Shown here one piece after another: positions 13,239-35,322 of a stretch of 64,000 nucleotides of DNA. The DNA is from Tubulanus polymorphus (taxonomy: Eukaryota > Animalia > Nemertea). The notes beneath the pieces are model-generated. The model did not search any database, was not told the origin of the DNA, and saw only the letters and a program-made list of their open reading frames with translations. A program made the translations under genes and the position numbers. Location of the stretch: assembly GCF_964204645.1 (NCBI RefSeq), contig NC_134033.1, positions 7,076,655 to 7,140,654 on the forward strand, in the 5' to 3' direction. The stretch's first letter is position 1; each line of letters starts with the position of its first letter.

Positions 13239-13270
13239 AATTTTAACTTAAATAAAAATATATATAATAA

Positions 13271-14002
13271 ATGGAAGGAGGTAAAGTATATAAACATATT
13301 CCATACATCGATACACATGAAAATAATGATGGTTTATATTATGTAATACCTTGTAATATAGCTTTGATATTTGATCCTATTTTCAAAATTTATAAAACTA
13401 AACTAATAGAAATCGATAATAATAAAAGTGGTGTTGTTGATAATTTAAGTAATGTAATTGATAATAATGTAATACCTTCTACATCTAATAATGTAATACC
13501 TACTACATCTAATAATGTAATACCTTCTACATCTAATAATGTAATACCTTCTACATCTAATAATGCAATAATATTAAATGTTAGTGAAAATAGAAATTAT
13601 TGTGATTATTGTAAAGGTGAATTTTCAAACGCTCCATCAAATTGGAATAAACATATGAATACAAGGGTACATATAAATAATGTTATAGAACGTGTTGGTT
13701 TAAAAGAATCTATAGAACACCCATTTAGATATGTTACAAAGTTTGTTTCAAATCAAAAAGTAAATGGTAAAGAATTATATAAAGATTTATTATTAGCAAC
13801 ACCTAATAAAGATGAATTAGATTTAACCGATGCTAATAAAATATTAGAATCAAACACTGTAAATGAAATATTAGGAGCAAACACTAATAAAGATAATAAT
13901 GAAAATGGTGCCGTATGGCACCCACATGGTGATATAGTTACAGGAAAGCGCATTGATAATAAAGATTCTATGATTCTATTCTATCAGAAAATAAAGATAT
14001 AG
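13271..14002 (+). CDS. A-specific protein with (NNVIPSTS)x4 repeat and a C2H2 finger; 3' end possibly frameshifted
   Basis: 24-bp tandem repeat ~13462-13565; CDYC-x13-H-x5-H. Confidence 0.65.
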   Translation: MEGGKVYKHIPYIDTHENNDGLYYVIPCNIALIFDPIFKIYKTKLIEIDNNKSGVVDNLSNVIDNNVIPSTSNNVIPTTSNNVIPSTSNNVIPSTSNNAIILNVSENRNYCDYCKGEFSNAPSNWNKHMNTRVHINNVIERVGLKESIEHPFRYVTKFVSNQKVNGKELYKDLLLATPNKDELDLTDANKILESNTVNEILGANTNKDNNENGAVWHPHGDIVTGKRIDNKDSMILFYQKIKI

Positions 14003-14152
14003 TTGAGATGACTAATAAGTATATCAATAAACCAATTATTTATGAAGATACGGTAGAGCATTTGAATAAATTGTTAGGGTCTGATGATGAATTGGAGAGT
14101 GATGATGAAAGTGATTCAGAAAGTAATTATCTAACACTCAAAAAGTAATAAA

Positions 14153-14500
14153 GGTTGAAAATTGGATAAAATAATAGTAAATAAAAAAGGGGGTTTTAAG
14201 TATTAAGGTACCTAATACGTATTTAATACATATCTAATACATATCTAATACGTTTTATTTGAAAATACCTTAAATTGTATTTCTTTTTTAAATTTATATT
14301 GAAACCTCAGTAATAATAAATAACCTTTATTATTTTCAAACTTATTCATATATTAGTTGAAAAAATAAAAATAAATTGGTTGAAAATTGTATAAATAATA
14401 TTTATTTTTAAAAAGGGGGTTTTAAGTAATTAAGGTATCTAATAGGGTATCAGGTATTAGGGTATCTAATATGGTATCTAATAGGGTATCTAATACATAG
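14153..14500. repeat. Duplicated non-coding cassette followed by short GGTATCTAATA-type repeats
   Basis: GGTTGAAAATTG...AAAAGGGGGTTTTAAGTA.TAAGGTA.CTAATA at ~14153-14218 and ~14378-14444, each followed by degenerate 11-12-mers. Confidence 0.75.
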
Positions 14501-14624
14501 GTATATTTTAAACATATTTCAATATTTATATTTGTATTTTATTGAAATAATTCATATATATTCATGAATAACATATAAATGAATAACTTCTAAAATCAAT
14601 TTAGTAAAAAAATATGTATAATAA

Positions 14625-15308
14625 ATGGAACCAGAACAACCACAAACTATAAATATTACAAATAATACTGGTGTCATAAACATATACTACAAGAAGTGTT
14701 CTAAATGTGAATTAGATAAATTAGCTTTAACAGAATTTAGTAAGCGTAAGATTAGCAAAGATGGTTTTCAATATTGCTGTAAAACTTGTACTAAACTATA
14801 TACCAAACAATATCGAGAGGATAATATAGAACATTATAATTATTATATGGCAGAATATATGAGAGAAAGATATAAAACAGATCTTAATTTTAGATTGAAA
14901 CAATGCTTAAGATCTAGATTAACACAATTATTCAACAAAGAAACACATTCAGAAACACTATCTAATTTATTGGGTTGTGAATTTTGTGGTAATGAATTTT
15001 TCATATCATGGATAATATATCAATTCGATGATAAAATGAATATAGATAATTATGGTGAATACTTTCATATTGATCATGTGTTGCCGATTTCTAAATTTGA
15101 CATGAATGATGAATACAATAAGAAGCTAATATGGAGCTGGAAAAATTTAAGACCTTTAGAAAAGAAGGAAAATATAATTAAATCTAATAAACTAGATATA
15201 CAGTTATATTTAGATCAACTGGATAAAGCAAAGACATTTGTTGAATTATGGAACTCAACACATAATGAAAAATACGTTGAGGAATTTGATATCAAGGATC
15301 CGAAATGA
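14625..15308 (+). CDS. HNH endonuclease of the type common in large DNA viruses (A-specific)
   Basis: N-terminal CxxC...KDG...CKxC; NYG..FHIDHVLP...NLRPL...N..KSNK. Confidence 0.8.
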   Translation: MEPEQPQTINITNNTGVINIYYKKCSKCELDKLALTEFSKRKISKDGFQYCCKTCTKLYTKQYREDNIEHYNYYMAEYMRERYKTDLNFRLKQCLRSRLTQLFNKETHSETLSNLLGCEFCGNEFFISWIIYQFDDKMNIDNYGEYFHIDHVLPISKFDMNDEYNKKLIWSWKNLRPLEKKENIIKSNKLDIQLYLDQLDKAKTFVELWNSTHNEKYVEEFDIKDPK

Positions 15309-15366
15309 CTTATCTGGACAGTTATAATTACTGCTCCTAATAGATAAACAAAAGTAGTGAGATATC
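15288..15366 (+). other. Conserved putative structured RNA/DNA element, copy in A
   Basis: Homologous to 34530-34604 on the minus strand, with compensatory stem changes. Confidence 0.55.
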
Positions 15367-15620
15367 AAATAGAATTCAAATAAAATATATTAAAAAAACA
15401 ATAACTTCAACTAGCCATTATTTCTATTTTAATTTTTGATATTTTCTTTTACAATTCTTTTCAAAAGAGAATACTTTATATCACAAATAAAAAATACTAA
15501 AAATACAATAACTAATACTAAAATTCTTTACCTTTAACTAAGCTAGTATTAATCTAAAGAGATACTGGTATCATTTGAAGAATACTTATAATATTTTTTT
15601 CGCTTTTTTCTCATATATAA

Positions 15621-16224
15621 ATGTCAAAGAAATCGAGTAAGAATAGTATTGATATTGAAAAGACATTAGATGATTTGGGTATAAGTGATAATAAAGATAC
15701 AGTTGTAACTAATTGTGCTCAAGTAAATTGTAATATTGATTATGAATACTATTTATATTGTAAGCATCATCTTCAATTATTAATTGCTGGCGGGAAATCT
15801 AAGGATTTCTTGGGAAAAATTTTAACTTATCATGAACTAGATGCTATGAAACCCGATAAAGTAATAAAACATTTTAAGATTTTATGAAGAGTCAAGATTA
15901 GCTAGAATAAATGATTCTATTTCAGATGGTATTGTCAAATGTTATTCTAAGTTATGTCACCAGTTAATACCAATTAATGATGAAAATAAATTATATAGTG
16001 ATTTGAAAAATGACTACTTAGTTATGACTGAATTACAAAAATGGGTTGGATATGCTTCATTTCAATTAGGATCGGTTATGACATTAATTTCTACTGGTGT
16101 CATAACATTTTCGAACATCAAGCCTATGGAATATAAATCAGGTAAGAACGAAACAGATGTACTACAACCAAACGTCGAAACAGAAAATGAATCAGGACAA
16201 AAATTAACTAAAATAAATGAGTGA
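15621..16224 (+). pseudogene. Homolog of the B 196-aa membrane protein (frameshifted)
   Basis: IEKTLDDLGI, YEYYLYCKH and LKNDYLVMTEL shared with 33594-34184. Confidence 0.8.
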
Positions 16225-16585
16225 TAGCGTTAAGAAGAAGCCTAGATCCGAGAAACAAATTAAATGGGCAAGAGAATTAGGTAAAAGATCTTCAGAATTA
16301 AAAAAAGCTAAGAAAAAGAAATTAACTGTTATAAATGAATCACAGAAATTATCTGATATTGATTCAAATAATAATCCATCTGATTCTTCTAATGCTGGAA
16401 GTAATTATAAATTATATATTACAATTGGATTAGTAACAGTTATTATATTATCCGGTGTAATATATAAATCAAAATTCAAATCTGATGATAAAGATGATTC
16501 CAATGATAATAAACCTATCATACCAGAAAATAAGTCAAATGATAAAGTCATTGAAAATAAACCAAGATTATTATTAATGGATTAA
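16217..16585 (+). CDS. Basic single-TM protein, A
   Basis: RS.KQI.W.R.LG motif and TM segment shared with 34132-34485. Confidence 0.75.
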   Translation: MSDSVKKKPRSEKQIKWARELGKRSSELKKAKKKKLTVINESQKLSDIDSNNNPSDSSNAGSNYKLYITIGLVTVIILSGVIYKSKFKSDDKDDSNDNKPIIPENKSNDKVIENKPRLLLMD

Positions 16586-16591
16586 AATAAG

Positions 16592-17605
16592 ATGAAAAAA
16601 GAACAATATTTTAGATATTTATATTATAACCCAGAAAGTGAAGTATCATATTCTAGCGTTTCAGAATTATGGGATAAAATTAAATCTGATAAAGAAAATG
16701 GTGCCGTACGGCACCCACACGGTGATATAAAATATAGTGAGTTAAAATCATGGTTACAAAATCAACCAACATATCAAATCCACAAGAAAATGGATGAAAC
16801 TTATTTAACAAGAAAAGTTATGGTTTCATATATCGATCAACAATGGCAAGCAGATTTAATTGACATGAAGAACTTAGAAGAATACAACAAAGGATATTTC
16901 TGGATATTATATGTTATAGAAATATTCAGTCGATACACATGGTCAATTCCAATCAAAAATAAAACTGGTATAGAAGTAACAAATGCTTTTAAATCTATAT
17001 TTAAAGAAGCAATTCCAGATAAGATACAATTTGATGAAGGTAAGGAATTTTATAACAAACATTTCAAAAAACTATTATCTGATAACGATGTAGATTATTT
17101 TTATAAAAAAGCATCTATTATAGAAAGATTTAATAAAACATTGAAAACTAGAATGTGGAAATATTTTACTGCTAATGAAACATATAAATATATCGATGTG
17201 TTAGATGATTTAGTGAAAGGTTATAATAATTCTAAACATAGTTATATAAACATGAAACCTATACAAAGTAAGAAAAGGAGATAATTCAGAAATAGTTTGG
17301 AATAATTTATATGGAGCGTTTGTTACACATGATTTCGGGGAACCTAAATTTAAAATTGGACAACACGTTAGAATATCTAAATATAGAAAAACATTTTATT
17401 AAGGTTATACCCCTAATTTTACAGAAGAAGTATTCAAGATTAAAAAGATAATATTAACTAAACCATTTGTTTATAAACTAGAAGATCTAAAAGATGAAGA
17501 AATATTAGGTTATTTCTATGAACAAGAATTATCACTTGTACCAAATCCAGATGAAATAGAATACAAAATAGAAAAAGTATTGAAAACAAAAACTCTTAAA
17601 GGAAT
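16592..17605 (+). pseudogene. Retroviral-like (rve) integrase, A; frameshifted, chromodomain truncated
   Basis: WQADLID, IQFDEGKEF, IIERFNKT catalytic D-D-E; a deletion fuses its end to the ATPase start. Confidence 0.9.
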
Positions 17606-18208
17606 AAAGATTTATTTATATTTGAACCGCATAATATGTTAGTTACTGGTGTAACCAATTGTGGAACACATTTCATATTAGATTTGTTAGAAACTATTTA
17701 TAAGAATCATTTTGATAATATAATATTATTCTGTCCTACTTATGAAATGAATAAAACATATAATAGAGATATAGTTAAGATAAAAAAGTTTATTATATTA
17801 AATCCTAAAACAGTAAAAGAAAATTTAGATAATTGTATAAAAATAGCAATTGATACTTATAAAGGATCAAATACATTATTCATTATGGATGATTGCGCTA
17901 ATTTACATGATTCAAAAGTGAGAGAAAGTGAGTTATGTTATCTAGCTTTCTCTGGAAGACATTTTGGGATAACAACATGGGTTTTAAATCAAAAATATAA
18001 TTCAATTGTTAAAGACTTTAGGGAGAATATAAGATTTCTAGTTTTATTTTATAACAAAGATAGAAAATCTATGCAACAATCATTGGAAGAAAATCAAATT
18101 ATACCTACTGAATTACATGATGAATATATGAATAAATTAAGGAATAATAAAGGTTCAAAATTATTACTGAGACTACAATTTCCCTATGAATATAAGTTTA
18201 TAAAATAA
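17603..18208 (+). pseudogene. A32/FtsK-HerA-type packaging ATPase, A; Walker A lysine missing
   Basis: GVTNCG-TH (B has GVTNCGKT), FIMDD, SGRH. Confidence 0.85.
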
Positions 18209-18239
18209 CTATTTATATATCTATTCTATAAGAGCTTAC

Positions 18240-18468
18240 ACTTTTATATTGAATAATCTGTCAATTTAAATGTTATTCATATACATGATTATTTTAAGAG
18301 TAATAGGGATAATAGGCTTTCAGGTTAAAGGTTGAATGGTCGAGTTCATTAAAAACAAAACATGAAAAGTAATTTAAAACTATAATATATTTTCATAACC
18401 GTGTGTATTTCAGTTGAATAATAGAATAATAATTATTATTAAAATATATTTGATTATATGAATTTGTG
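18240..18468. repeat. Inner part of the right TIR of element A
   Basis: Reverse complement of ~1970-2198 with few mismatches. Confidence 0.92.
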
Positions 18469-18640
18469 AGTAATTAGAAGATGGCGTTTTCAGATCAGAG
18501 GACGAGAGGACGAGACACCGCTCATCACCACAAGTAATTTTTTTTCCTAATAAATGGGGGAGAATGAACACCAACTAGAAAAACATAATGTCAATAAAAA
18601 TCAATATTATTGTCAATATTGTAAAAAATACATCGATACA
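18469..18640. repeat. Left TIR of element B, running into the pPolB 5' end
   Basis: Reverse complement of ~35147-35316; first ~75 bp essentially identical. Confidence 0.9.
18521..18556 (+). promoter_or_regulatory. 36-bp leader CTCATCACCACAAGTAAT(n)CCTAATAAATG, copy 1 of 4 (pPolB)
   Basis: Also on the minus strand at 24916-24951, 34959-34994 and 35229-35264, always ending in a start codon. Confidence 0.8.
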
Positions 18641-21600
18641 TCTAATAAAACACGACATGAAAAAACTGCAAATCATATAAAAAATGTAATAGATTTTGAA
18701 ACTCCAGAAAATTCCAATGAAAGAAAAGAACGATTAGAAAATATGAATGTGGATGAAATAAAATGTGAAGTTTGTAACGAATTTATAGTAAAAAGGAATT
18801 ATAATAGACATCTCGAATCACAAAAACATTATAAAAATTTAAATAAAAATGTTTTAGGATTAGAATATTTTGATAATAAACCTCAACAAGTAAAAGAATC
18901 AACTTCAAAAACAAAATCCATTTCAAATAAACCTTACATGGAAAATGTTAGAAATTATATTGATTCACTAGAAATAAAAGATACAATTGAAATTTTAGAA
19001 ACATTACATAGTAAAATTGGTCCTGCAGCTATTATATTTAGATTTTTTAAAGGTACAACAATAGAAGATTATAGTAAATTTAATGAAATAATAGAAAAAA
19101 TACTAGATTTTATAACAGATGTTGAATATCCAAAAATTAGTATCTCTGGGAAAGTAAGTTTTATAAAGTCAGAAGAAAAAATGGATTATAATATTCAAAC
19201 ACACTCTGAAGAAATAATTTCAAAAACACAAATAAAAGAGAAGTTAGAAAAAATATTAAATGAATTTAAACGTCATATTGAAGAAAGATATTTTGAGGGT
19301 TCTGGCTTAACATTGAATGAAATTATATATTTAGATTTAAATGTTTATAATACAAAAAGAAATAAAACATCAAAAAGTAATAAAATGTTTAAAAATAATT
19401 CAAACTTTATAATAGAAAAAGATATGAAAGCATCAAGTTATATTAAATTACCATTTTTATCAAAAGCAATTATAAATGTTAAAAATGAAGACAACAAATG
19501 TTTTCTGTGGGCAATTATTAGTTGCTTACATCCATCACAGGAAAATGTTTGTAGAATAACAGATTATCGGAAATATGAAACATTATATAAAATTGATCAA
19601 TATCCAGTAACTATAAAAATGATTCCTAAAATAGAAAAAGTTAATAATTTAAAAATAAATGTATTCGAATTAATGCAATTACCAAAGACAAAAGGTGAAA
19701 ATATTAAAGATTATACATTGGAAGCTTTATATTTAACAGAATATTATGATGATGAAAATGCTTTAGATTTGTTATATTACAAAAAAGATGAAAATGAACA
19801 TTATATGTGGTTAAAACAAATTGATTTATTCTTTAGAACAGAAAGTGATTTTAACAGCCATAAAATTTATCTATGTAGAAAATGTTTATCTAAATTTAGA
19901 ACTGAGAATACATTATTAAAACATAAAGAATTATGTGATAATAAAGATTTTTGTAAATTAATAATGCCAACAGAAAAAGATTATAAATTGAAATTTACTA
20001 ATCATAAATTTAAAAATATTGTTCCATTTGTAATTTATGGGGATTTTGAATCATTGAATAAAGAATTAACTGATCAAGATAGAAAAGAAATATATAACAA
20101 AAAGCAATTATTAAAATCAATGGATAAAGGAAGTGAATTAAATGAAGACATAATTCAAGACCCACCAATTATAAATACAATTAAAAAAGTTCATCAAAGA
20201 GCTGCTGCTTATGGAATTTATATAAAATCAAATTATCCTGAATTATATGAAAGTCAATATATTTCTTTTAGAGGTGAAAATGTAGTTAATGATTTTTGTG
20301 ATAAAATTATTGAATTAGAAAGTGATTTTGCAAAATTATTAAACAAAAATAAAAGAATAGTTATGACAAAAGAAGATGAAATTGATTTTAATTATGCAAC
20401 TCATTGTTGTTATTGTGAAAAACGTTTTTATTCATTTGATAAAAGAGTTAGAGATCATGATCATTTAAATTCAAAATATCGTGGAGCTGCTCATGAAGAT
20501 TGTAATTTACAAGCTAAAAAAGTAAATTTCGTACCAATATTATTTCATAATTTATCAGGATATGATACCCATCTATTTATAAAACAATTATCGGGAAAAT
20601 TGGGCGCAATTAATCAAGAAATAGAAGAATATAATGCTATGAATGAAGCAAATGTAAGAAAATATGATTTTAAACTATTAGCTAAAACATCTGAAAATTA
20701 TATTTCATTTCAATTTGGTTGCATTAGATTTTTAGATTCTTATAGATTTCTAGCAAGTTCATTAGATAATTCATCAAAATCATTAGTTGATAATGATTTT
20801 GTTATAACTCGATATCATTATCCAAATGACCAAGATTTTAAATTATTAAGATATAAAGGCGCAATTCCTTATTCATTTTATAAAACACATGATGATTTTA
20901 ATGTAACAGAATTATTAAAAGATCAATTTTATGATAAATTAAAAGAGGAGTATGTGAAAGACGAAGTTTTTAATAGAACATTAAATATTTGGAACCATTT
21001 TAAGATGAAAAATCATGGTGAATTAGTTGATTTATATTTAAAATCAGATGTTATGATATTGGCTGACATATTTGAAAAGTTTAGAGAAGTTAATCTAAAC
21101 CATTTTAATGTTGATCCTTGTTATTGCTACTCTAGTCCTGGTTTAACCTGGCAATGTGGTTTAAAATATACAAATGTAGAATTAGATTTATTAAAAGAAC
21201 CAGATATGGTTTTATTATTTGAAAAATCAATTAGAGGTGGAATTAGTGGTGTTATGGGAGATAGGTATTTTAAAGCAAATGATGAATATAAATTATTATA
21301 TATTGACGCCAATAATTTATATGGTTGGGCAATGATGCAACCTCAACCATATAAAAATTTTATATTAACAGAAGTTGAAAGTGATGATAAAACTAATTGG
21401 GAAAGCGCAATTATGAGTTTAGAAGATGAAGCACCAATTGGTTATTTCTTTGTAGTTGATTTAGAATATCCTGAAAATATAAAGTTTAAAACAAGAAACT
21501 TACCTTATTGCCCAGAACATTTAACTGTAGATGATAGTTATTTAAGTGAATACCAGAAGAAAATAAAACCGAAAGATCATGTTTTTACAGAAAAATTAAT

Positions 21601-23620
21601 ACTTACTCAAAATAATAAATACAATTATATTGTTCATTATAGAATGTTAAAATTTTATCTAAAACAAGGAATGAAATTAAAGAAAGTACATAGATATATT
21701 GAATTTAATCAATCGAAGTGATTAGAAAAATATATAGATTTCAATACTCAACAGAGAACAATATCAAAAAATGATTTTGAGAAGGATTTTTTTAAGTTAA
21801 TGAACAATGCATTTTATGGTAAGACTTGTGAAAACATAAGAAATAGAAATGATATTGAGTTAGTAAATGATTATGAACGATTGAGACACCTACAATCAAG
21901 TCCTAGACATTTAGGAAATAAAAGATTTGAGGATTATTTGACCGCGGTAAAATTAAAAAGAACGTCAATGAAATTTAATAAACCCATTTTCATAGGTTCA
22001 ACCGTTTTAGAAGGTTCAAAATTACTAATGTATAATTTTTATTATAATGTTTTGCAACCACTTTTTGGGGAAAAACACATAGAAATTCTATACTTCGATT
22101 CTGTAACAGCTGACACCCCAATATTATTAAAATGTAATAATAAAATATTGGTAAGAAGAATTTCAGAAATAATTCCAAAACAAAATGAATGTTATATTTT
22201 ATATGGTGAAAAAGAATTAATACAAATAAATGGATTAATGGATGTTTGGACAAGAAATGGATGGAAAAAATTAAATAATATTATTAGACATAAAACAAAT
22301 AAGAAAATCTATAGAGTTAGAACTAAATTAGGATTTGTAGATGTTACAGAAGATCATAGTTTAATTAAACAAAATGGTGATGAAATAAAACCAACTGATA
22401 TAAAAATTGGAGATGAATTATTACATAAAAGATTTTACCCAAGAATGAATCATATGTCATTTGATGAAATAATTGATAATATTTATAATATAGAACCCGA
22501 AACATTGGAAGAAAAAGAATATTTTATCAAAGGATTTTTCATGGGTGATGGTTCAGCAGGTGTGTATAATTATGTTAGTGGAACTAAATATTGTTGGTAT
22601 TTATGCAATCAAGACTTAAAATTATTAGAAAGAATTAAGAAATTCTGTGAAGAAGTTTATCCAAATAAAACATTTAGAATCATGGATGTTATGAAATCAT
22701 CAGCAGTTTATAGAATACTTGTAAATAATCCTAAAGATTTTGCTATAGAATATAATGATGAATTCTATATTCATGCAATAGTGAAAAGTAATACTTCGAC
22801 AAAAGAAAAGATAGTTCCAGATTATGTATTGAATGCAAAAAATAATTTAAGAAAATGGTTCTTCATTGGATTCTACGCAGCCGATGGTACTAAAAGTTTC
22901 AAAAACCGCAAAACAATATCTTTAGCTCAAAAAGGAAAAGTTGCTATATCAGGATTAAATATATTATGCAATTCATTAGGTTTTAATATGAATATTGGAT
23001 TGAATAAATCTAAACCAAATTGCTTTAATTTAAGCCATGTAGAAAATGAGTTAACTGAAGAAGTTAAAGATTTATTTGAAATATATAACCCATCAGATTA
23101 TGTTTATGATTTATCAACTGAAGATGGTACATTTAACTGTGGATTTCCATTAATAGCCAAAAATACTGACGCCTACATACTAAAAATCAAGACAAATGAC
23201 ATAACAAAAGACTTAAAAACATTGAAACATCATTTTGATTTTAGTAACTATCCAAAAAATCATGAACTATTTAGCAATGATAATAAAAAGATTCCTGGTA
23301 AGTTTAAAGATGAATTAGGAGGTGATGAAATGATTGAATTTGTTGGGATAAGAAGTAAAATGTATAGTTACAGAACAAAAGATCATGAAGCTAAAAAGTT
23401 AAAAGGAATAACAAAACATGTGGTTGATAAACATATAGAATTTCAAGATTATATAAAGTGTTTATATAAATCAATTGTAATGAAACACAAAATGAATTGT
23501 TTAAGATCAGAAGATCATGAGATGTACATTAATGAAGTTGAAAAAACTAGTTTAAATCCATTTGATGATAAAAGGCATATTTTAGATGATGGTATTAAAA
23601 CATTACCTTATGGCCATTAA
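18554..23620 (+). pseudogene. pPolB: Protein-primed family B DNA polymerase of B, intein-containing, with one in-frame TGA at 21719-21721
   Basis: All Exo and Pol motifs present; 18554-21721 and 21800-23620 share a frame; the TGA replaces W of QSKWLEKY in A. Confidence 0.95.
22100..23164 (+). mobile_element. Intein (355 aa) with LAGLIDADG homing endonuclease in PolB motif C
   Basis: YFD|SVTADTP...VTEDH...GFFMGDG...GFYAADG...VYDLSTEDGTF...AKN|TDAY; A has uninterrupted YFDTDSY; open frame throughout. Confidence 0.95.
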
Positions 23621-24918
23621 AACATAAAATCAATATCATCATACTCGAAATCACTATTGTCTTCTTCATTTTCATTTAATTGTTTAGGTTCTTCTTCCAC
23701 TCCATTTTTCTCATTTAAATAAAGTTCTATCTTGTTCCACATTTCATCTCGCTCTCTTTGTTTCTTTTTGTTTGTTAATTCATCAAATGGAATTATAATA
23801 TCTAGGTTTAAATAATTTACAATCTTATTTAAAAAGAATTCATAATTTATTGAATCTGTTATTCTATTTTCCAAATGATACATTAATATTTGTTTGAATA
23901 TTTTTTTTATATTTTTCATATCTTCTTCTGTTAATTTAGGTTTTTCATAATAATCGTTAAATAATAAATATAAATACATTTTCTTTTCTTTTGTGTTAAA
24001 TGTTGGTGGAATAACTGTTTTTATAATATCTTTTTTAGTTATTTCACCATTTTTATTTTCTATTATTTTCATTTTTTCAAGCCATTGCATATATTCTGGT
24101 GTATGATCTTCTATAGAAAATATTTTAAAAATTTCATCAAGATAATTTAATTTTGGATCTATAAGAAAATTTCTAGTTTTTTCTTCATCCCATAAATTCT
24201 TTTGCCATCCACAATCAACACAAAATAACACAGTACCTTCTTGTCTTAAGGTCGCATAACTACATTGTGGACATTTTCGTTTATAATTTATTGGTAATAG
24301 ATCTTCATTAAGCTCTTGGTATTTTCTTACGTTTTCTTTATGTTTTATTGTTCTATTATGTAGATTTGAATTACTTGTTGTAATAATCAATTTACAATAT
24401 TTACAATAATATGTTTTTCTTGTTAATTCATTATATTGTTTTTCTAACTTTTCAACTGTTTCTTCATTATCTGGTAACGTTTTCTCATATTTTATTTTTT
24501 CTAATAAATTATTTTTTCTTTCATTGAATTCAGTTTCAAATTTATTAGAAATTTTATCTATATGTGCTTTACGAAATTGATGATTCTCCCAATCTTCTTT
24601 ATTATCAGGACAAAATCTTATTCGACAATGCTCACATAAATTATTCTTTACATTATTCTTGTCATAAAATAAAAAAGGTCTTTTCCAAATAACTTCAGGT
24701 TCAACTTCAGCAGAATTACTATCAACATTAGCCGTTGCGCCATTAATTCTAGACTTCTCTGAATGTTTTTTAACATAATTTCTTGAGAATAATTTATTAC
24801 ATTTTGGACAGTTTATTTTAGGGGGTTTATAATTTTCATTATGTTTTTTCATATGTCGAGCCATATTACTTTTTCTTAGAAGTTCACCACAAATTTCACA
24901 TGGTATCTTCTCGTCCAT
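23617..24918 (-). CDS. Multi-C2H2-finger protein fused to a poxvirus A2/VLTF-3-like late transcription factor domain (B-specific)
   Basis: CPQC-x13-CVDC ribbon, then NFLIDPKLNYL, IFKQ...EN...INYEFFLNKI, DEMWNKI; matches vaccinia A2 as I recall it. Confidence 0.72.
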   Translation of the reverse strand: MDEKIPCEICGELLRKSNMARHMKKHNENYKPPKINCPKCNKLFSRNYVKKHSEKSRINGATANVDSNSAEVEPEVIWKRPFLFYDKNNVKNNLCEHCRIRFCPDNKEDWENHQFRKAHIDKISNKFETEFNERKNNLLEKIKYEKTLPDNEETVEKLEKQYNELTRKTYYCKYCKLIITTSNSNLHNRTIKHKENVRKYQELNEDLLPINYKRKCPQCSYATLRQEGTVLFCVDCGWQKNLWDEEKTRNFLIDPKLNYLDEIFKIFSIEDHTPEYMQWLEKMKIIENKNGEITKKDIIKTVIPPTFNTKEKKMYLYLLFNDYYEKPKLTEEDMKNIKKIFKQILMYHLENRITDSINYEFFLNKIVNYLNLDIIIPFDELTNKKKQRERDEMWNKIELYLNEKNGVEEEPKQLNENEEDNSDFEYDDIDFMF

Positions 24919-24951
24919 TTATTAGGGAAAAAAATTACTTGTGGTGATGAG
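24916..24951 (-). promoter_or_regulatory. 36-bp leader, copy 2 (VLTF-3-like gene)
   Basis: Near-exact copy of 18521-18556. Confidence 0.8.
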
Positions 24952-24975
24952 TGTAATTTTTTTATGTTATAAATA

Positions 24976-25773
24976 ATGGTAGAATTAAAAGAATACAGAA
25001 TATTTGTTGATTCTAGAAAACTTATAAATTATAAATCTCATAATTTATTAGTACAATTAGATAGAGAATTTAAGAATTGTGTAGATTTAAAATTAGTAAA
25101 TATAAGTTTATGTAATTCTTTTTATAATATATCGGATAAAACTGATGAACATAGAAGCCTTCTTATTTTTGATAAACTTGAAAAAAAATGGATTCAACTT
25201 ATGCTTACACCAGGATTATATGATTTAGAAACATTAGAGCAAGAAATTAATAGAAAAGCTCGGATTAGATTAGGTAATGGTAATTGTAAATTTAATATTA
25301 AATTCATAAAAAGTGAGAGCTCTAATAAAATTAAAATAAAGCTTGATGATGAACTTATTAAACTTGATAAATCTAATCCATTGATGACAAGAAGACATAC
25401 TTACACAGCAAAAAAACCTATAGCTAAACTATTAGGAATTACTCCAAATCAATTTGGTGGAAACAAACACGGTAACTCAAATATAATACCTTTTACACAC
25501 TTTTATATTTATTGCAATTTAATCGATCCTACAAAAACTTTCGAAGCAACTAAAGATACAACATGTAATTCTAGTATATTAAACATTTTACCATTGAAGA
25601 ATGTTAAACAATTTGGAACGCAAATAAATTATAATTTAGCTGAATGTGATTTTAAACCTTGCATTCCTCATTTTAATAATTTTAGATTAGAAATTAGAAA
25701 TCATAATGGATACTTAATTGATTTAAATAACTTTCCTGTGATATATGAATTAGTTATAAGATGTAGAGAGTAA
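24976..25773 (+). CDS. Minor capsid (penton-like) protein candidate, B
   Basis: Same motifs as 6776-7501; divergent central part. Confidence 0.65.
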   Translation: MVELKEYRIFVDSRKLINYKSHNLLVQLDREFKNCVDLKLVNISLCNSFYNISDKTDEHRSLLIFDKLEKKWIQLMLTPGLYDLETLEQEINRKARIRLGNGNCKFNIKFIKSESSNKIKIKLDDELIKLDKSNPLMTRRHTYTAKKPIAKLLGITPNQFGGNKHGNSNIIPFTHFYIYCNLIDPTKTFEATKDTTCNSSILNILPLKNVKQFGTQINYNLAECDFKPCIPHFNNFRLEIRNHNGYLIDLNNFPVIYELVIRCRE

Positions 25774-25789
25774 TTTTTTCATTATATAA

Positions 25790-26146
25790 ATGAATATAAC
25801 TGTTGGACCGAGTATATGTTTTGGATTTGATTTTAAACATGGTAAAGAAATGAAATTTAACATTAATGATGTAATAACACATATCAAAAATGTTGTATTT
25901 TCTAATGAAACAACATTTGAGTATGAAACAACAATTGATAAAGAAACTTTAAATGTAGAAAAGATTACTAATTTAATTAGAGAATCTTTAAGATTTTATG
26001 AATTAGATGAAGATTTTATCATCGATGATATTAAAAAAATAATAATTGAAATATATACAAATGAAACTAGTAATAAAATAAATGTTGAATTAATCATCAC
26101 TAAGTTAACTAAATATTTTGATGATAGTAATTTTTTTGATAAATAA
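25790..26146 (+). CDS. Conserved hypothetical protein, B
   Basis: ORF with a homolog in A and TAAATG start. Confidence 0.8.
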   Translation: MNITVGPSICFGFDFKHGKEMKFNINDVITHIKNVVFSNETTFEYETTIDKETLNVEKITNLIRESLRFYELDEDFIIDDIKKIIIEIYTNETSNKINVELIITKLTKYFDDSNFFDK

Positions 26147-26368
26147 ATGAGTGATAATAAGTGGATAATAACTGGATTATATAATGGAGCATTACTATCA
26201 GTTGGAACTGTTGGTTATTCAATGGTATTAAAAAAAGTATTCAAAATGGGAAGTGTTAATGTTGATAGATTTGATATCAATGATATTTTAAAGTTAACGT
26301 TAGCAGTTACTTTATCTAATTTAACTATTGATTATTTGGAAAAACAAAAATATATTCCTCCCATATAA
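26147..26368 (+). CDS. Small hydrophobic or membrane protein, B
   Basis: ORF with a homolog in A; two hydrophobic stretches. Confidence 0.78.
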   Translation: MSDNKWIITGLYNGALLSVGTVGYSMVLKKVFKMGSVNVDRFDINDILKLTLAVTLSNLTIDYLEKQKYIPPI

Positions 26369-26392
26369 ATGCATAATTTTTTTGCTAAATAA

Positions 26393-26815
26393 ATGGCTTC
26401 TGCAATTATAACTATTATAGGATCAGCAATTGTTAACGCTTTAGCATTTACTGGTGGTGGATATTTATTTAAACATATTGATAAAAATAGTTCATTAGGA
26501 GAACAAAGAAGACATAACTTAGCGTTAGAGAAATATAATAAAGATGCAGAAGAATATAGAGAAAAGAGACAAAACTATATGGATTACATCAATAAAGAAT
26601 TATATGATCAGAAGATTTCACATAGAGATTTTCAATCAGTTGATGATGCAATGAGTTTATATAACGCAGTAACAAATAAAGAAAAATTACATCTATACAA
26701 ACCTAAATTATCAGATTATTATACCCCAAGTAAAGAACAACAGAAATATGAAATAATATGGATTTTAGGTGGAACTGTTATTGTTATATTTGTTGCTTAT
26801 AAGTTTACTAATTAG
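26393..26815 (+). CDS. Membrane protein, B
   Basis: Hydrophobic N- and C-termini around a coiled region; homolog in A. Confidence 0.8.
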   Translation: MASAIITIIGSAIVNALAFTGGGYLFKHIDKNSSLGEQRRHNLALEKYNKDAEEYREKRQNYMDYINKELYDQKISHRDFQSVDDAMSLYNAVTNKEKLHLYKPKLSDYYTPSKEQQKYEIIWILGGTVIVIFVAYKFTN

Positions 26816-26834
26816 TAATTTTTATTCTAAATAA

Positions 26835-27269
26835 ATGGAAGATAAAGTTGATAGTATTGATATTATTCCTCATGATATAAATAAAACTAAATTAAAAACA
26901 TATTTAGAAAAACAAATATTAGAATTTGAAAGTGACTTAAAGATAAAAAAGAAAAAATATCTAAAAAGTAAAATTATATATTATCTTATTATTAGTGGTT
27001 CGGTTACAATTAGTTCTGTAATAACATTTCTAGCAATATTCAGTCCATTAACACCTTTAGCTATATCAATTGGTGTGTTAGGATTAAGTTCAAGTGTTTT
27101 AACTGGTATAAGTTCAAAATTAAATATAAAAAGTAATAAAGAAAAAATGAAAACTAATATAAAAGAAATTAATAAATTAAAGAACACACTAGATTATATA
27201 ATAAGTTTAAATGGTCATATAACAGTTGAAGAACAAGATAAATTATTAAAAGAATTAATAAATTATTAA
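26835..27269 (+). CDS. Two-TM protein, B
   Basis: Central hydrophobic hairpin flanked by basic helices. Confidence 0.8.
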   Translation: MEDKVDSIDIIPHDINKTKLKTYLEKQILEFESDLKIKKKKYLKSKIIYYLIISGSVTISSVITFLAIFSPLTPLAISIGVLGLSSSVLTGISSKLNIKSNKEKMKTNIKEINKLKNTLDYIISLNGHITVEEQDKLLKELINY

Positions 27270-27285
27270 TTTTTTAATTATATAA

Positions 27286-28701
27286 ATGGCAGATAGTTTT
27301 CCAAAAGCTTTCCAATACAATAAATCAATTAAATATAATATTCCAGCAATAGATTTTAATAAAGATATTACATATAGAAATGAAGTTTTAGATTCATTAA
27401 CTAATTTAGAAATTTATGTTACTGAAACTAATAATTTTAATGCAAAGATGGAAAATATATTTCATGTATATTTAATTAATTTTAAAAAATTGAAAGATGA
27501 AAAACAATGGTTATTAAAATCTAATATGAAGTATTGGCAGAATCAATTAAATTTTGCTGTTTATTGTGCAACAACAGGATGTGGAATTAGTTGGAATGAT
27601 CATTTGAATAATTCTAAATATAAACTAATTCAAAGTTTATTTAGATTTCATACATACTTTCAAATCAGAATAATATTAAATGAATTAGAGTGCGCTTTAC
27701 CAGGATCTAGATATTTTAAAGAATTAGATAATAATATTAATTTATCTAAGTTTTATAAAATTTGTAATGAATTTAATATAGATATAAATAATTCTGATTT
27801 TAGAACAAAAATTGGAACAATAAGATCACTTCCTTGCCCTAGAAAGATTGCAGAATATTGTGCACTTCCCATACCATCTAATAGTTTTTATAATATCTAT
27901 AATAAAAAATTAGGTTATGGTAAAATAGAAACAAACGATTTAGAAACATTAAATTTCAATAAATTACCGAAATTTTATGATCATTTAAAACAAGAAAACA
28001 ATAATGGTTGGGTTTATTTTATTTTAGAAAATAGTGAAGGTTTTACTAAATCAGGTATAGAAAGAATAAATCAATCTATTAGAACTTATTTGATTTGTAT
28101 TCTAGGATCACAAGTTGAAACAAGATCCCCAATAATTGGAAATTTAAATACATCATTTGATACACAAAAACAATTTAAAGTTTTATTTGAAGATTCAATT
28201 CATAATGATAAAAATAGATCGATTCCAGAAAACATTATAAGATATCAAAATTATTTAGATAAATCTCATGTAAGACTTAATTATTGTATAGGCCCTAATC
28301 TATTAATTATTTCTAATGATTTAGTATTAAAGATGGGAAATATAATTGGTTATAATAATCTAATTAAAACTGCAACAATAAATAATTCATTTGGATTGAA
28401 TGATATAAATAAAAAGATTATTACTGCTCCAAAATTAATGGAAGGTGAAAAAAATAAAAAACACATTCAATCAACTGAAACTAAAACTAAGAATATTAAA
28501 TTAAATAATGATTCTAAAATAAAAGATTATAATACATCAGAAAATAATAGAACTGATAATGGTGCCATATGGCACCCACACGGTGATATTCAACATGATG
28601 TAATTAAACTAAATGATGATAATAAATTCCATGAAAATACTAAATTAGCTATAACTTGTATAGGAATTGTTATAGGAGGAATATTATATTTTAAATTTTA
28701 A
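27286..28701 (+). CDS. C-terminally anchored putative virion protein, B
   Basis: 471-aa ORF, QNQLNFAVYCATTGCGIS motif, C-terminal TM; homolog in A. Confidence 0.8.
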   Translation: MADSFPKAFQYNKSIKYNIPAIDFNKDITYRNEVLDSLTNLEIYVTETNNFNAKMENIFHVYLINFKKLKDEKQWLLKSNMKYWQNQLNFAVYCATTGCGISWNDHLNNSKYKLIQSLFRFHTYFQIRIILNELECALPGSRYFKELDNNINLSKFYKICNEFNIDINNSDFRTKIGTIRSLPCPRKIAEYCALPIPSNSFYNIYNKKLGYGKIETNDLETLNFNKLPKFYDHLKQENNNGWVYFILENSEGFTKSGIERINQSIRTYLICILGSQVETRSPIIGNLNTSFDTQKQFKVLFEDSIHNDKNRSIPENIIRYQNYLDKSHVRLNYCIGPNLLIISNDLVLKMGNIIGYNNLIKTATINNSFGLNDINKKIITAPKLMEGEKNKKHIQSTETKTKNIKLNNDSKIKDYNTSENNRTDNGAIWHPHGDIQHDVIKLNDDNKFHENTKLAITCIGIVIGGILYFKF

Positions 28702-28717
28702 TTTTTTTATTATATAA

Positions 28718-30253
28718 ATGGATGTAGAAGGTGTAGAAGATATTGGAATGGATCCTTTTGATGAACCTGGTATAACTGATGAACAACCACCTGATTTTGA
28801 TGAAACAAGTTTTAATGATGGTAATGAACCAGAATATAACAATAATTTAAATATGCCTGATTATATTAAAAATGCTGAATCACAATTAAATCCTGAAAAT
28901 TTAGACCCAGATTTAGTAAAACAAGATTTAGATAATTTAAACAAAATACCTAAATTAGAAGATTTAATTGAAAAATCTAATTTTAACATAAATGATGAAG
29001 ACGTTGGACTTTTAGCAGATCAATTAAAATTTTTAGATAATGGTAAATGTTATTATCGTTTGAAAGGTGATTATTATATTGATATCACTTATAAAAATAA
29101 TAAAAATAAAATATTATCAGAATCAACTTTAGAAAAATTAAAACCAGATAGAATTAAAATAATAAGTAATAGTAATGAAATAACTGATGTTACACAAAAA
29201 GAAATAGATGATAATATAGATGTATTTAAACAAAGAATTAATGAATTATTTGAAATAATCAAAAAGAAATCAGAAACAGAAATGGAAGAGAATAGAGATA
29301 AATTAAGATCTTCAACACCCGAAACATCGAGAAGAGACACTCAACAAATTGATAATGATTTAAGTCAATCACAATTAGAAAAACGTTTAGATAACTTACT
29401 GAATAAAACTTCCAAAACTAGTAAACTTAAATCAAATAAAGTTCTAATTGAAAAACTTTTACCGAATGGATTACTTGATGCAACAGATCAAGAATTAGAA
29501 GATTTAGATATATTTTCTGATAAAGCAATTAGAGAAATTATTAGTATAAGACTTGCATCTGATAAAATTGCGCATAATAAAAGTATAAGAGATCAAAAAA
29601 TTACGTATTTGGAAAAAGAATTAACTGATAAAAATAAAGAAATAGAACAACTAAAGTCTGATTTAGATCATCAAGTAATTGATGAAATAGAATATAGGCA
29701 AAAAGAATTACGTTTAGAAAAAGAAATTAGTAATTTAAAAGATAATTTAGAAGTACAGAAAGAAGAAATTAAATTATTGTTAAAATCATATGATTATAAT
29801 ATTAATAGATTAAAAGTTATTTTTAAAGATTTGTTGATTAAACCAAATTCTGACATATCACTAAAAGATAGAATAAGATTATTATTTAAATTAGAAGGAA
29901 TAACAATTCTTTCAATTCTAACATCTGTAACTATGTTATTTACAACAATTGGTTTAGCTATATCAAATGCTTTGAAATCTACTCCTACTCCCAATAAACC
30001 AGATAAACCTCCAGGAAATAATTCTATACAAGATAAAGTTAAGGATGGTTTAAAGAAATTAGCAAAATATTTATGGGAACTATCTAAAAAATCTGCTGCA
30101 GCTTTACCAGGAGTTATTGCTTCAATTGTTGGTTTTATATTGAAATCTGCAGGAAACATTATTAACTTTGCTGCTGAACATATTATTTTATTTTTAATTA
30201 CAGTTGTAAGTGCTATTATTTTTGGGTTAGTGAATATGATTAAAAATAAATAA
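28718..30253 (+). CDS. Acidic/coiled-coil protein with C-terminal TM helices, B
   Basis: 511-aa ORF with heptad-rich middle and 2-3 hydrophobic helices. Confidence 0.8.
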   Translation: MDVEGVEDIGMDPFDEPGITDEQPPDFDETSFNDGNEPEYNNNLNMPDYIKNAESQLNPENLDPDLVKQDLDNLNKIPKLEDLIEKSNFNINDEDVGLLADQLKFLDNGKCYYRLKGDYYIDITYKNNKNKILSESTLEKLKPDRIKIISNSNEITDVTQKEIDDNIDVFKQRINELFEIIKKKSETEMEENRDKLRSSTPETSRRDTQQIDNDLSQSQLEKRLDNLLNKTSKTSKLKSNKVLIEKLLPNGLLDATDQELEDLDIFSDKAIREIISIRLASDKIAHNKSIRDQKITYLEKELTDKNKEIEQLKSDLDHQVIDEIEYRQKELRLEKEISNLKDNLEVQKEEIKLLLKSYDYNINRLKVIFKDLLIKPNSDISLKDRIRLLFKLEGITILSILTSVTMLFTTIGLAISNALKSTPTPNKPDKPPGNNSIQDKVKDGLKKLAKYLWELSKKSAAALPGVIASIVGFILKSAGNIINFAAEHIILFLITVVSAIIFGLVNMIKNK

Positions 30254-30273
30254 TTAATTTTTTTGTTTAATAA

Positions 30274-31521
30274 ATGAGTGGGAGTTATATAAGTCCTTCT
30301 AAGATTTCTAGAATATCTAATGCTATTAAAGCAGAAAGATCACATCATATAATTACTCATAACCCTTCAAATATTAATCCTGATGAAACTTTATATGTTA
30401 GAATCCCTCAATTAACACAAAATACTTTTTATGTTCCAAACAGTATTTATTTATCAGCTGATATAAAAGTAATCGGTAATAATAATAATTATGTCGTTGA
30501 TAATGTTGGAAGATATTTGATTAAAAAGTTAACAATAAAGATTGGTCCAGAAACAGTTTTCTCATTAGATGATTATAATTTATTTATGCATTATAAAGAT
30601 TTATGGTTAACTAAAGAAAATAGAAATAATATGATATTTCAAGGCATCCAATCAGAAAACCAAAATAAATTAAGATCAGAAGCTAATAACGCAATATTAA
30701 CAAATGATGTAGATAAATTGATAAAAAGTATATATGGAAGCAAATATAAAATTCCATTAGACTTTGAATTGATAAATAATAATGCACCTTTATATAAATA
30801 CGCAATTCAAGAAGATATTATATTTGAGATAACATTTGCTCCTGTAAATGAAATTGTATTATCTAGCGTTGTTAAAGATATGAGTTATAAATTATCGAAT
30901 ATATGTTTAGAATATGATACAGTAACTGATGAAAATATTGCTAGCACAATTCAAACTCAATACAATCAAGGATTTTCATTATTATATGATTATATTGATA
31001 AATTTAAAACTGTAACTATTAATGCAAATGATGAAATAATAAATGAGAATATTAACTTCCCAAGAAGATCTATTAAAGGTATATTAATATTTTTTACCAT
31101 TGGAACGTATACTAATGGTGCAATAAATGTTGATAATTATTATAATCCTGAAATAACAAAAGTAGAAATAACTATCGAAGGAATAGCAAATAAAATATTT
31201 TGTCAAGGAATGAGAATGATAGATCAATGGGTAGAAATTAAAAAACATTTTATGAATGAAAAAGTAAAATCATTTGAAAATTGTAACATTAATCAAATTG
31301 ATTATTATACCGGTAATAAATATGCATTATGGTTAGATTTTAGAACAACTGAAGATAATTCATTACATGGTTCTGGAAAAAAACTACAGAACACTAAAGA
31401 TGGAATACAATTATTTATGAAAAAGAAAAAGGGAATCAAAAATTTTAAAATGCATATTTATATTATATCTGATGCGCAATTAAATATTATAAATTCACAA
31501 TTAGATAGTATTCAATATTAG
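30274..31521 (+). CDS. Major capsid protein candidate (double jelly-roll expected), B
   Basis: 415 aa, beta-rich, highly conserved between A and B, size and position as expected; fold not verified. Confidence 0.75.
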   Translation: MSGSYISPSKISRISNAIKAERSHHIITHNPSNINPDETLYVRIPQLTQNTFYVPNSIYLSADIKVIGNNNNYVVDNVGRYLIKKLTIKIGPETVFSLDDYNLFMHYKDLWLTKENRNNMIFQGIQSENQNKLRSEANNAILTNDVDKLIKSIYGSKYKIPLDFELINNNAPLYKYAIQEDIIFEITFAPVNEIVLSSVVKDMSYKLSNICLEYDTVTDENIASTIQTQYNQGFSLLYDYIDKFKTVTINANDEIINENINFPRRSIKGILIFFTIGTYTNGAINVDNYYNPEITKVEITIEGIANKIFCQGMRMIDQWVEIKKHFMNEKVKSFENCNINQIDYYTGNKYALWLDFRTTEDNSLHGSGKKLQNTKDGIQLFMKKKKGIKNFKMHIYIISDAQLNIINSQLDSIQY

Positions 31522-31551
31522 AAATATAAAGTTAAAATTAAGGATATATAA

Positions 31552-32679
31552 ATGGGAGGTAAAAAAACCCCTAATACTAAAGAACAATATTTAAGAAATT
31601 TATATTACAACCCTGAGAGTTCGGTTGCTTATTCTTCTACTAAAAATATATGGCGTAAAGTAAAACAAGATAAATTAGATAAGATAATCCCACAAAATTT
31701 AGTTAAATATAAAGATATAAATGAATTTATGTTAGAACAACCAACGTATACAACACATAAAAAAATTGTTAGAAAATATAAAACTCGTAAAACTATGGTA
31801 AGTTATGTAGATCAACAGTGGCAAGGAGATTTAATTGATATGAAAAATCTTAAAAAAGATAATAATGATTATTGGTGGATATTGAATATAATTGATATTT
31901 TTAGTCGTTATGTATGGAGTTTCCCACTTTATAGAAAAGATGCTGCACAAACATCACATGTTTTAAGAAAATTTCTTTCAGGTGGTAAACTAAAACCAGA
32001 AAAAATTCAATTTGATGATGGAAAAGAGTTTGATAATTCATTTGTTCATGAACTCTTAGATAATCATAATATTAAATATTTTTCAACAAAATCGGATAAA
32101 AAAGCAGCAGTTGTTGAACGATTTAATAGAACATTAAGAACAAGAATGTGGAAATATTTTACAGCAAATAATACTTTTAAATGGATTGATGTTTTACCAA
32201 AATTGATAGAAGGATATAATAATTCTTATCATTCTTCTATTGGAATGAAACCTATTGATGCTAGAAAATCTGAAAATGCTGAAATTGTTTGGAATAATTT
32301 ATATGGAGCATTTCTTATAGATGATTTTGGTGAACCTAAATTTAAAGTTGGTCAAAATGTTAGAATTTCTAAGTATAAAAAGATATTTGATAAAGGATAC
32401 GATCGAAATTTTACTAGAGAAATATATAAAATAAAAAAGGTAATAACAACAAAACCATATGTCTATAAATTAGAAGATTTAGATGGTGAAGAAGTTGATG
32501 GATATTTTTACGAAGAAGAATTAAGTTTAACTACTGAAAATCTAGAACAAGAATATAAAATTGAAAAAGTATTAAAAACAAAAACTGTTAAAAGAAAAAA
32601 ATATTCTTTAGTAAAATGGGTTGGATGGCCAGATAAATTCAATGAATGGATATTATCAAGTAAAATTAAAAATATATAA
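31552..32679 (+). CDS. rve integrase with C-terminal chromodomain, B
   Basis: WQGDLID, IQFDDGKEF, VVERFNRT; YKIEKVLK...LVKWVGWPDKFNEWI. Confidence 0.95.
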   Translation: MGGKKTPNTKEQYLRNLYYNPESSVAYSSTKNIWRKVKQDKLDKIIPQNLVKYKDINEFMLEQPTYTTHKKIVRKYKTRKTMVSYVDQQWQGDLIDMKNLKKDNNDYWWILNIIDIFSRYVWSFPLYRKDAAQTSHVLRKFLSGGKLKPEKIQFDDGKEFDNSFVHELLDNHNIKYFSTKSDKKAAVVERFNRTLRTRMWKYFTANNTFKWIDVLPKLIEGYNNSYHSSIGMKPIDARKSENAEIVWNNLYGAFLIDDFGEPKFKVGQNVRISKYKKIFDKGYDRNFTREIYKIKKVITTKPYVYKLEDLDGEEVDGYFYEEELSLTTENLEQEYKIEKVLKTKTVKRKKYSLVKWVGWPDKFNEWILSSKIKNI

Positions 32680-33288
32680 ATGAATAAGGAATTATTCATA
32701 TTTGAGCCTCATAATATGTTAATTTCTGGTGTAACAAATTGTGGAAAAACTTATTTTATATTACATTTATTATAAACTGTTTATGAAAACTATTTTGATA
32801 ATATAGTATTATTTTGTCCAACATATGAATTTAATCAAACTTATGATAAAAATATTACTAGGAATAATAAATTTATTATATTAGATCCTAAAACAGTAAA
32901 AGAAAATTTAGATAATTGTATAAAAATAGCAATTGATATTTATAAAGGATCAAATACATTATTTATCATAGATGATTGTGCTAATCTACATGATTCAAAA
33001 GTTAGAGAAAGTGAGTTATGTTATTTGGCTTTCTCTGGGAGACATTTTGGGATAACAACTTGGGTTTTAAATCAGAAATATAATTCAATTGTGAAAGATT
33101 TTAGAGAAAACATTAGATTTCTAGTTTTATTCTACAATAAAGATAGAAAATCGATGAAAAATGCACTTGAGGAAAATGATATTATTCCACATGATTTACA
33201 TAATGAATATATGGATAAGTTGAAAAATATTAAAAGATCAAAATTACTATTTAGATTACAACACCCATTTAAATATGAATTTATTTAA
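32680..33288 (+). pseudogene. A32/FtsK-HerA-type packaging ATPase, B (nonsense at 32773-32775)
   Basis: GVTNCGKT Walker A, FIIDD Walker B, SGRH. Confidence 0.9.
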
Positions 33289-33289
33289 A

Positions 33290-33562
33290 TTCAACTGGCT
33301 TGTTAATCTAGTTGAATTCTAGTTATTGGTAGTTGAATTCTAGTTATTAGTAGTTGTAACAAAAATCAAATAGATTTAACAATATTTTAACTAGCTTGTT
33401 AATCTATTTTAATTCTAGTTACATTCTAGTTGAATTCTAGTTGTGAGTAGTTGAAACAAAAATCAACTAGATTTAACAAGAAATAAACAAAAACACTAAT
33501 ATTTCAACTAGCTTGTTAATCTAGTTGAATTCTAGTTACATTCTAGTTAAATTCTAGTTGCA
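33290..33562. repeat. Array of CTAGTT(GAATT) motifs in about three higher-order units
   Basis: AACT(A/G)GCTTGTTAATCTA three times; TAGTT more than ten times. Confidence 0.8.
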
Positions 33563-33593
33563 ACATCACACAATTAATTTTTTTGTTATATAA

Positions 33594-35316: not shown

Positions 35317-35322
35317 TTTGTG

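Follow-up and report, generated by a model that had tools for sequence, protein, structure and literature searches.

Introduction

Homologues of the poxvirus late transcription factor A2/VLTF-3 have already been reported in Polinton-type genomes, namely in stony-coral polintoviruses (PMC11131425), in MELD viruses (PMC8502044) and in the Zephyrvirus Polinton-like viruses (PLVs) VC123/126 (10.64898/2026.06.19.733378). The present analysis concerns a further gene of this kind, located in a 64,000-nucleotide window of the nemertean Tubulanus polymorphus (contig NC_134033.1, positions 7,076,655 to 7,140,654; assembly GCF_964204645.1). There it occupies positions 23617..24918 (minus strand) of an element, Polinton B, which is nested in a second one, Polinton A. 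With the reported genomes B shares a VLTF3 homologue accompanied by a protein-primed DNA polymerase (pPolB), an rve integrase, a major capsid protein (MCP) and an A32-type packaging ATPase. The VLTF3 of the coral, MELD and Zephyrvirus genomes is described as giant-virus or mimivirus-like, and neither an affinity to poxviruses nor a fusion to fingers nor a promoter motif is mentioned in the available parts of these descriptions, which were compared as descriptions and not as sequences.

The virophages Mavirus and Sputnik carry the late-promoter motif of their helper before most or all genes, and Mavirus uses an rve integrase for its integration and can be reactivated by the helper (PMC6723459). 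Their helper is a mimivirus-type virus of protists, whereas here the motif is of poxvirus type, the host is an animal and the element encodes a late factor of its own. PLVs found in entomopoxvirus occlusion bodies are likewise Polinton-like and have been proposed as poxvirus hyperparasites (Barth et al., PMC11296320); they differ in size (~12 kb) in a comparison with B made by description only, and the terms "transcription", "TAAAT" and "VLTF" are absent from the main text of that report. Mriyaviruses also combine small genomes and VLTF3 with the lack of an RNA polymerase, and, according to the available part of their description (PMC11253617), they differ in encoding VLTF2 too, in having no DNA polymerase, in being inferred to be nuclear and in not being Polintons. 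The accessible text of Krupovic and Koonin 2016 (PMC5499653) does not mention VLTF. No publication was found that reports, for Polintons, a poxvirus-type A2, its fusion to fingers or promoters of the TAAATG type, although such genes may be present in the supplementary data of the studies on coral, MELD and PLV genomes. VLTF3-bearing Polintons and virophage-like satellites being known, what appears new from the sequence is a poxvirus-side, finger-fused A2 together with TAAATG gene starts.

Results and Discussion

Identity and Fold of the VLTF3 Domain

Sequence and structure-model comparisons confirm the gene as a member of the poxvirus A2/VLTF-3 family (PF04947 plus the PF08792 A2L ribbon), the identity proposed in the initial annotation. 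Residues 205-410 match Pfam PF04947 Pox_VLTF3 with an E-value of 3.1e-6 and 27.5 bits, above the cut-off of 25. The full-length protein returns zinc-finger families only, with no Pox_VLTF3 at E<=0.1, and A2L_zn_ribbon is not among the matches at E<=1 for residues 205-410. A phmmer search of 1.84 billion representative proteins gave four matches. Two of these (P0002, 47%; P0003, 39%) have the identical finger-plus-VLTF3 layout, a third (P0005, E 7e-5) shares 60-63% of its residues with named VLTF-3 proteins of entomopoxviruses, and the last (P0004, also P0008), of 281 aa, is a diverged VLTF3-like protein without finger array that groups loosely with the Polinton proteins. Word-indexed protein searches yielded no additional relatives of the fusion protein, and neither the VLTF3 gene nor the MCP has relatives in the viral contigs or the prokaryote genomes searched.

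The order and spacing of motifs noted initially are all present and match the fetched chordopoxvirus A2 sequences. The CxxC-x13-CxxC zinc ribbon (aa 216-236, 24211..24273, minus strand), identified by alignment with viral VLTF3 rows, is formed by C216, C219, C233 and C236 with a 13-residue gap, and these cysteines do not vary among the 16 rows from poxviruses and the 15 from Megaviricetes. It is followed by NF-x5-KL-x2-L at aa 251-260 and by IFK-x7-EN-x5-INY-x-FFL-x-KI at aa 340-366, with W394 also in place. The stretch matching Pox_VLTF3 (aa 325-399, 23722..23946, minus strand) lies in a helical core predicted to form a cyclin/TFIIB-like repeat.

The AlphaFold model has a predicted local distance difference test (pLDDT) score of 78.6; a single-sequence prediction (pLDDT 49) was not used. 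In Foldseek against BFVD, the best viral match is cowpox VLTF-3 (rank 1, E 1.9e-6, TMq 0.60), followed at ranks 4-5 by VLTF-3 of entomopoxviruses and further down by VLTF3 of giant viruses; most named top rows are VLTF3, and rank 3 is an exonuclease entry unrelated by name. This fold match is not fully independent of the sequence evidence, because 5 of the 10 rows in the input alignment are entomopoxviral. Among solved structures (VIA), the top matches are TFIIB and cyclins (Z 6.7/6.5, root-mean-square deviation (rmsd) 3.5, ~90-93 aligned residues), which agrees with the suspected TFIIB-like fold at a middling score (Z under 8) covering one repeat only. Foldseek against the PDB gave no match at E<=0.001, and the best PDB sequence match of the fusion protein is not below E 0.046.

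Origin of the Domain

By profile score and tree position, the VLTF3 domain is on the poxvirus side of the family. It scores 35.0 bits against an entomopoxvirus profile (6 sequences), 31.8 against a chordopoxvirus profile (37 of 38 loci) and 3.3 against a profile of 68 Megaviricetes-type VLTF3 (at least 290 aa, from 120 loci). In a maximum-likelihood tree of 35 rows (4 Polinton-type, 6 entomopoxvirus, 10 of the 37 chordopoxvirus and 15 of the 68 Megaviricetes sequences), the Polinton proteins are sister to both poxvirus subfamilies and apart from Megaviricetes. Grouping them with entomopoxviruses (p-AU 0.107) or with chordopoxviruses (p-AU 0.095) is not rejected. The choice between a poxvirus and another nucleocytoplasmic large DNA virus origin, which the initial annotation had left to a phylogeny, thus falls to the side of the Poxviridae as against Megaviricetes; the result places the domain on that side and does not fix the donor, since the tree has long branches and includes no asfarviruses, egoviruses or iridoviruses.

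Architecture, Relatives and Conservation

The reading frame runs uninterrupted from 24918 to 23617 and encodes an intact fusion of a zinc-finger array to the A2/VLTF-3-like domain (433 codons). Compared with poxvirus A2, with which it shares ribbon spacing, core motifs, predicted fold and profile scores at ~20-25% identity, the protein has a zinc-finger extension of ~200 aa, a replacement of an invariant His, and an acidic tail where the poxvirus C-terminal tail is absent. Moreover, the element that encodes it integrates, measures 17 kb and has no RNA polymerase, A1 or G8 of its own.

The N-terminal half (aa 1-204, 24307..24918, minus strand) had been described as C2H2 fingers, which holds for finger 1 (aa 7-26), a classic C2H2 unit. 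Unit 2 (CxxC at 37) is degenerate, lacking the second His in the B copy, and fingers 3-4 (aa 95-119 and 172-193) have the longer spacing of the U1/matrin type (finger 4, Pfam zf-U1 E 3.5e-7). Finger 4 is furthermore similar to the N-terminal finger of B's own pPolB (E 1e-5). The gene is preceded by a 36-bp leader (24916..24951, minus strand) that ends in a T-tract and TAAATG, and near-identical copies of it occur in B before pPolB (18521), before a 108-aa open reading frame (ORF) (34981) and in the right inverted terminal repeat (ITR) (35251). The resemblance to the pPolB finger and the leader shared with pPolB suggest that the finger extension arose inside the element. No exact copy of the leader is present in the related loci L001-L003, where its 14-base core occurs once with 3 mismatches; a relative thus keeps the fusion without the leader, and the earlier idea that binding to this leader is a conserved role has to be given up.

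These relatives come from metagenome contigs, in which three loci were confirmed from 351 pattern matches. L001 and L003 share the gene order of B, including the tail-to-tail arrangement of fusion and pPolB genes, and also have a deoxynucleoside kinase. Identity between B and its relatives reaches 76% for the MCP (L003), 70% for pPolB and 40% for the fusion overall, and in the VLTF3 part 96 of 196 aligned residues (49%) are identical between B and L001. The kinase of L003 (9260-9901, Pfam dNK E 2e-31) lies head-to-head with the fusion, and as a nucleotide-supply gene it would suit replication outside the nucleus.

The codon GC of the VLTF3 gene is in line with that of the other B genes, which indicates long residence in the element. 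As judged from its sequence, the gene is kept under selection: it is intact in a copy whose pPolB and ATPase have stops, and it is conserved in L001.

Start-Site Motif

The gene starts of these elements resemble, in sequence, poxvirus post-replicative promoters, and the motif is not general to Polintons. TAAATG is found at 14 of 15 hand-picked starts of B (35/659 other ATGs), at 12 of 14 starts of A (39/674) and at all 13 starts of L003 (17/338). An automatic count gives 12/14 for B, 9/17 for A, where ORFs are broken and the figure is lower for that reason, 11/13 for L003 and 0/13 for ORFs of the host flank. Stop-start overlaps explain just 2 of the 15 B starts. The elements are ~76-80% AT, a composition that is controlled for by the other ATGs of the same DNA, only ~5% of which lie in TAAATG. 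At 9 of 10 other pPolB loci, used as controls, 0-1 TAAATG starts were counted.

The bases upstream of 28 TAAATG starts, pooled over B, L003 and L001, were compared with those of 52 background TAAATG sites. All 28 starts have A at -4 and at -18, 25 have T at -19, and 27 have T at -13 and -14; T at -13 is seen at 16 of the 52 background sites (p 4e-9). A division into two promoter classes (A-run and T-run) was dropped, as a single consensus of fixed spacing fits. In vaccinia late promoters TAAATG overlaps the start codon, and a conserved T lies ten bases 5' of TAAAT, i.e., at -13 (PMC11980589). Intermediate promoters have an AT-rich core ~12 bp from TAAA that is read directly by the viral polymerase, at a stage independent of A2 in vaccinia (PMC12917281). 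TAAATG is also used by entomopoxvirus late genes (PMC3061580), and it serves as the template for 5' poly(A) leaders (PMC4542343).

Copy Number

Raw DNA reads from a separate study labelled as the same species (1,934 million letters) show that A-type and B-type elements are both multi-copy, at roughly tens to hundreds of copies. Summed read depth over the VLTF3 gene is ~170-250; 329 reads cover an A-type junction without the VLTF3 gene and 699 cover A's repeat without B. The latter arrangement is thus common, so the nesting of B in A is a local event.

Proposed Mechanism and Alternatives

Dependence of the elements on a poxvirus-like helper, whichever way their factor acts, appears probable from the promoters and the gene taken together. 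For the specific reading that B is a satellite of such a virus, whose own A2 biases the helper polymerase toward element promoters, we would put the chances at about even. To the identity, intactness and conservation of the gene and the start motif, which were observed, this reading adds helper transcription and an effect of the protein on it, which we infer. During co-infection of a cell, the helper RNA polymerase would transcribe element DNA located in the helper factory, beginning at TAAAT initiators that overlap the ATG. The element A2, with its TFIIB-like ribbon and one helical repeat, would enter the helper late initiation complex and compete with or replace the helper A2, and further nucleic-acid affinity would come from the added fingers, for which the N-terminus of pPolB is the probable source. 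A-type elements lack the gene and nevertheless have these promoters, which points to VLTF3 as an accessory advantage gene rather than an essential one; the factor may be accessory or supplied in trans, and the data choose neither. As A-type copies lacking the gene are abundant and share these promoters, the earlier suggestion that A depends on B is not supported.

Several points weigh against the satellite reading. The best tree nests the Polinton VLTF3 in neither poxvirus subfamily, and poxvirus-invariant positions are retained at only 14 of 26. At aa 259, all three Polinton copies in the alignment (P0004 excluded) have Tyr, where 16/16 poxvirus and 15/15 Megaviricetes rows have His; this lowers the case for a true A2 orthologue, not that for homology. 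In the 9 kb of the locus L167, which contain no VLTF3, TAAATG is found at 6/6 starts but the upstream motif is not, and two entomopoxvirus control regions have TAAATG at 6 of 17 starts each. No helper virus, transcript or start site has been observed, and we know of no matching poxvirus for a host whose repeats look invertebrate. VLTF3 is also present in viruses without RNA polymerase (PMC11253617). The last point removes the initial premise that such a factor is only useful together with a viral polymerase, mriyaviruses keeping VLTF2/3 without one.

L167 (1-9034) is Polinton-like, with a higher GC content (38%) and a 503-aa integrase that has an extra N-terminal domain and is closest to the integrase of B. 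From its starts, it may represent a second lineage with poxvirus-type initiators.

The retained and lost residues bear on an alternative with the same poxvirus-dependent lifestyle, in which the protein would be a dominant-negative decoy: by binding either the helper polymerase or its A1/G8 partners it would block the late genes of the helper, so that the intermediate-type machinery stays available to the element, and it would possibly protect the host. The retention of only 14 of 26 invariant positions (12 changed) and the His-to-Tyr change fit a decoy equally well, and all three Polinton copies have, besides the change, lost the C-terminal tail of the poxvirus proteins. The element motif also has an upstream TAA, slightly more than one helical turn away, that resembles intermediate promoters and points the same way, given that the vaccinia intermediate stage proceeds without A2 (PMC12917281). 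In contrast, the four ribbon cysteines and the core residues L329, F341, Y359, L363, K386 and W394 are all retained, and blocking late transcription would also hit the element's own genes, the T at -13 being a late-promoter feature. On this sequence evidence we consider a decoy unlikely. The initial annotation had proposed that the fingers either redirect helper polymerase or act as a decoy; the poxvirus-type promoters favor its idea of a helper polymerase, and sequence cannot separate its two variants.

Quite unlikely, in our estimate, is an autonomous nuclear element whose TFIIB-like VLTF3 steers host RNA polymerase II without a helper. The TFIIB/cyclin fold as top solved-structure match (Z 6.7, rmsd 3.5, 93 aligned) speaks for it, as do the integration of the element in the host genome in many copies and the example of the mriyaviruses, whose VLTF3 presumably steers host polymerase likewise in the absence of an RNA polymerase (PMC11253617). 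However, A-type elements share the promoters without the factor, the motif is missing from most other Polinton-like loci, and the scan of window proteins gave no partner resembling TBP or VLTF2. RNA polymerase II requires a set distance from TATA to start, and start codons follow Kozak rules; the element motif abuts the ATG, which leaves no room for that distance, and places T at -3. Finally, passive cargo or an unrelated role, such as nucleic-acid binding in replication by pPolB, with TAAATG as a translation or AT-composition signal, is very unlikely: the tail-to-tail position with pPolB in B and L001, the leader and similar finger common to both genes and the AT-rich DNA would fit it, but the rarity of TAAATG at other ATGs, the fixed-position upstream bases, which point to a promoter, and the 49% identity of the domain between diverged elements do not.

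Genomic Context of Polintons A and B

The elements are, by gene content and termini, of the Polinton/Maverick type: pPolB, rve integrase, MCP and A32 ATPase are encoded in B, and both A and B have AG termini and 6-bp target duplications. Polinton B (18469..35316, 16,848 bp) has the termini AGTAATT...AATTACT and the target duplication TTTGTG (junctions at 18463-18474 and 35311-35322) and lies in the right ITR of Polinton A (1740..35557; termini AGTAAT...ATTACT, duplication CGAAGG), in which many genes are broken. A tandem arrangement of A and B is ruled out by the target duplications, which show nesting. On the plus strand B encodes pPolB (18554..23620), which faces the VLTF3 gene tail-to-tail, has 30-34% identity with pPolB-type loci and contains an in-frame stop at 21719-21721; the MCP (30274..31521; weak Pfam Capsid_N, E 0.016); the rve integrase with chromodomain (31552..32679; rve E 1e-9); and the packaging ATPase (32680..33288), with an in-frame stop near its 5' end. 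ATPase orthologues match Pox_A32 with E 3e-8 (A) and 5e-11 (L003). The stops in pPolB and ATPase of B, and the more broken state of A, imply that neither copy is autonomous now.

As the initial annotation had stated, A has no VLTF3 gene (tblastn of the window found none) and the element has no RNA polymerase, with no subunit family in a Pfam scan of 38 window proteins. No family of the adenovirus-type cysteine protease was found among the scanned element ORFs, several of which are without assignment.

A LAGLIDADG intein lies in the C-terminal part of B's pPolB (21800-23620) and is absent from the pPolB of A and L001. Within the 460-bp terminal repeat of A (1740-2201), the terminal ~110 bp recur in inverted orientation around a central GC-rich palindrome (about 1905-1965), so that a single strand could fold as a ~400-nt hairpin; the termini of B are without such an arrangement. 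Small related ORFs without Pfam match are found in A (6405-6758, 117 aa) and B (34635-34961, 108 aa), and may resemble OB-fold single-strand binding proteins. A, unlike B, has a gene (14625-15308) for a 227-aa protein that weakly matches HNH (E 0.08). A sequence of ~36-49 bp recurs in frame in three different genes (13888-13936, 16681-16729 and 28554-28589), giving NGAVWHPHGDI-like peptides and resembling a small mobile insert. The flank contains a Ty3/Gypsy element with reverse transcriptase, RNase H and integrase pieces (45003-48801), long interspersed nuclear element remnants and an ORF with an OTU domain (57964-58575), a set of remnants that would suit an invertebrate animal.

Conclusions

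Beyond the initial annotation, the VLTF3 gene proves to be part of a larger, element-wide promoter pattern. Two independent sequence signs, the post-replicative promoters throughout the element and the poxvirus-side A2 gene, point to a poxvirus-type partner and predict a hitherto undescribed poxvirus relative in this host group. They touch on the question of whether Polintons of animals live as autonomous viruses in the nucleus or parasitize large DNA viruses. The protein itself would be a natural A2 variant, possibly a hijacker or an inhibitor, acting at the stage of poxvirus transcription that is least understood. In a tentative and rather doubtful extension of this view, an animal Polinton lineage would comprise true poxvirus virophages, present in tens to hundreds of genomic copies and transcribed by the polymerase of a deep-branching invertebrate poxvirus, with a late factor captured and re-engineered to take over or shut down the helper late program, and may thus constitute a heritable anti-poxvirus defense.

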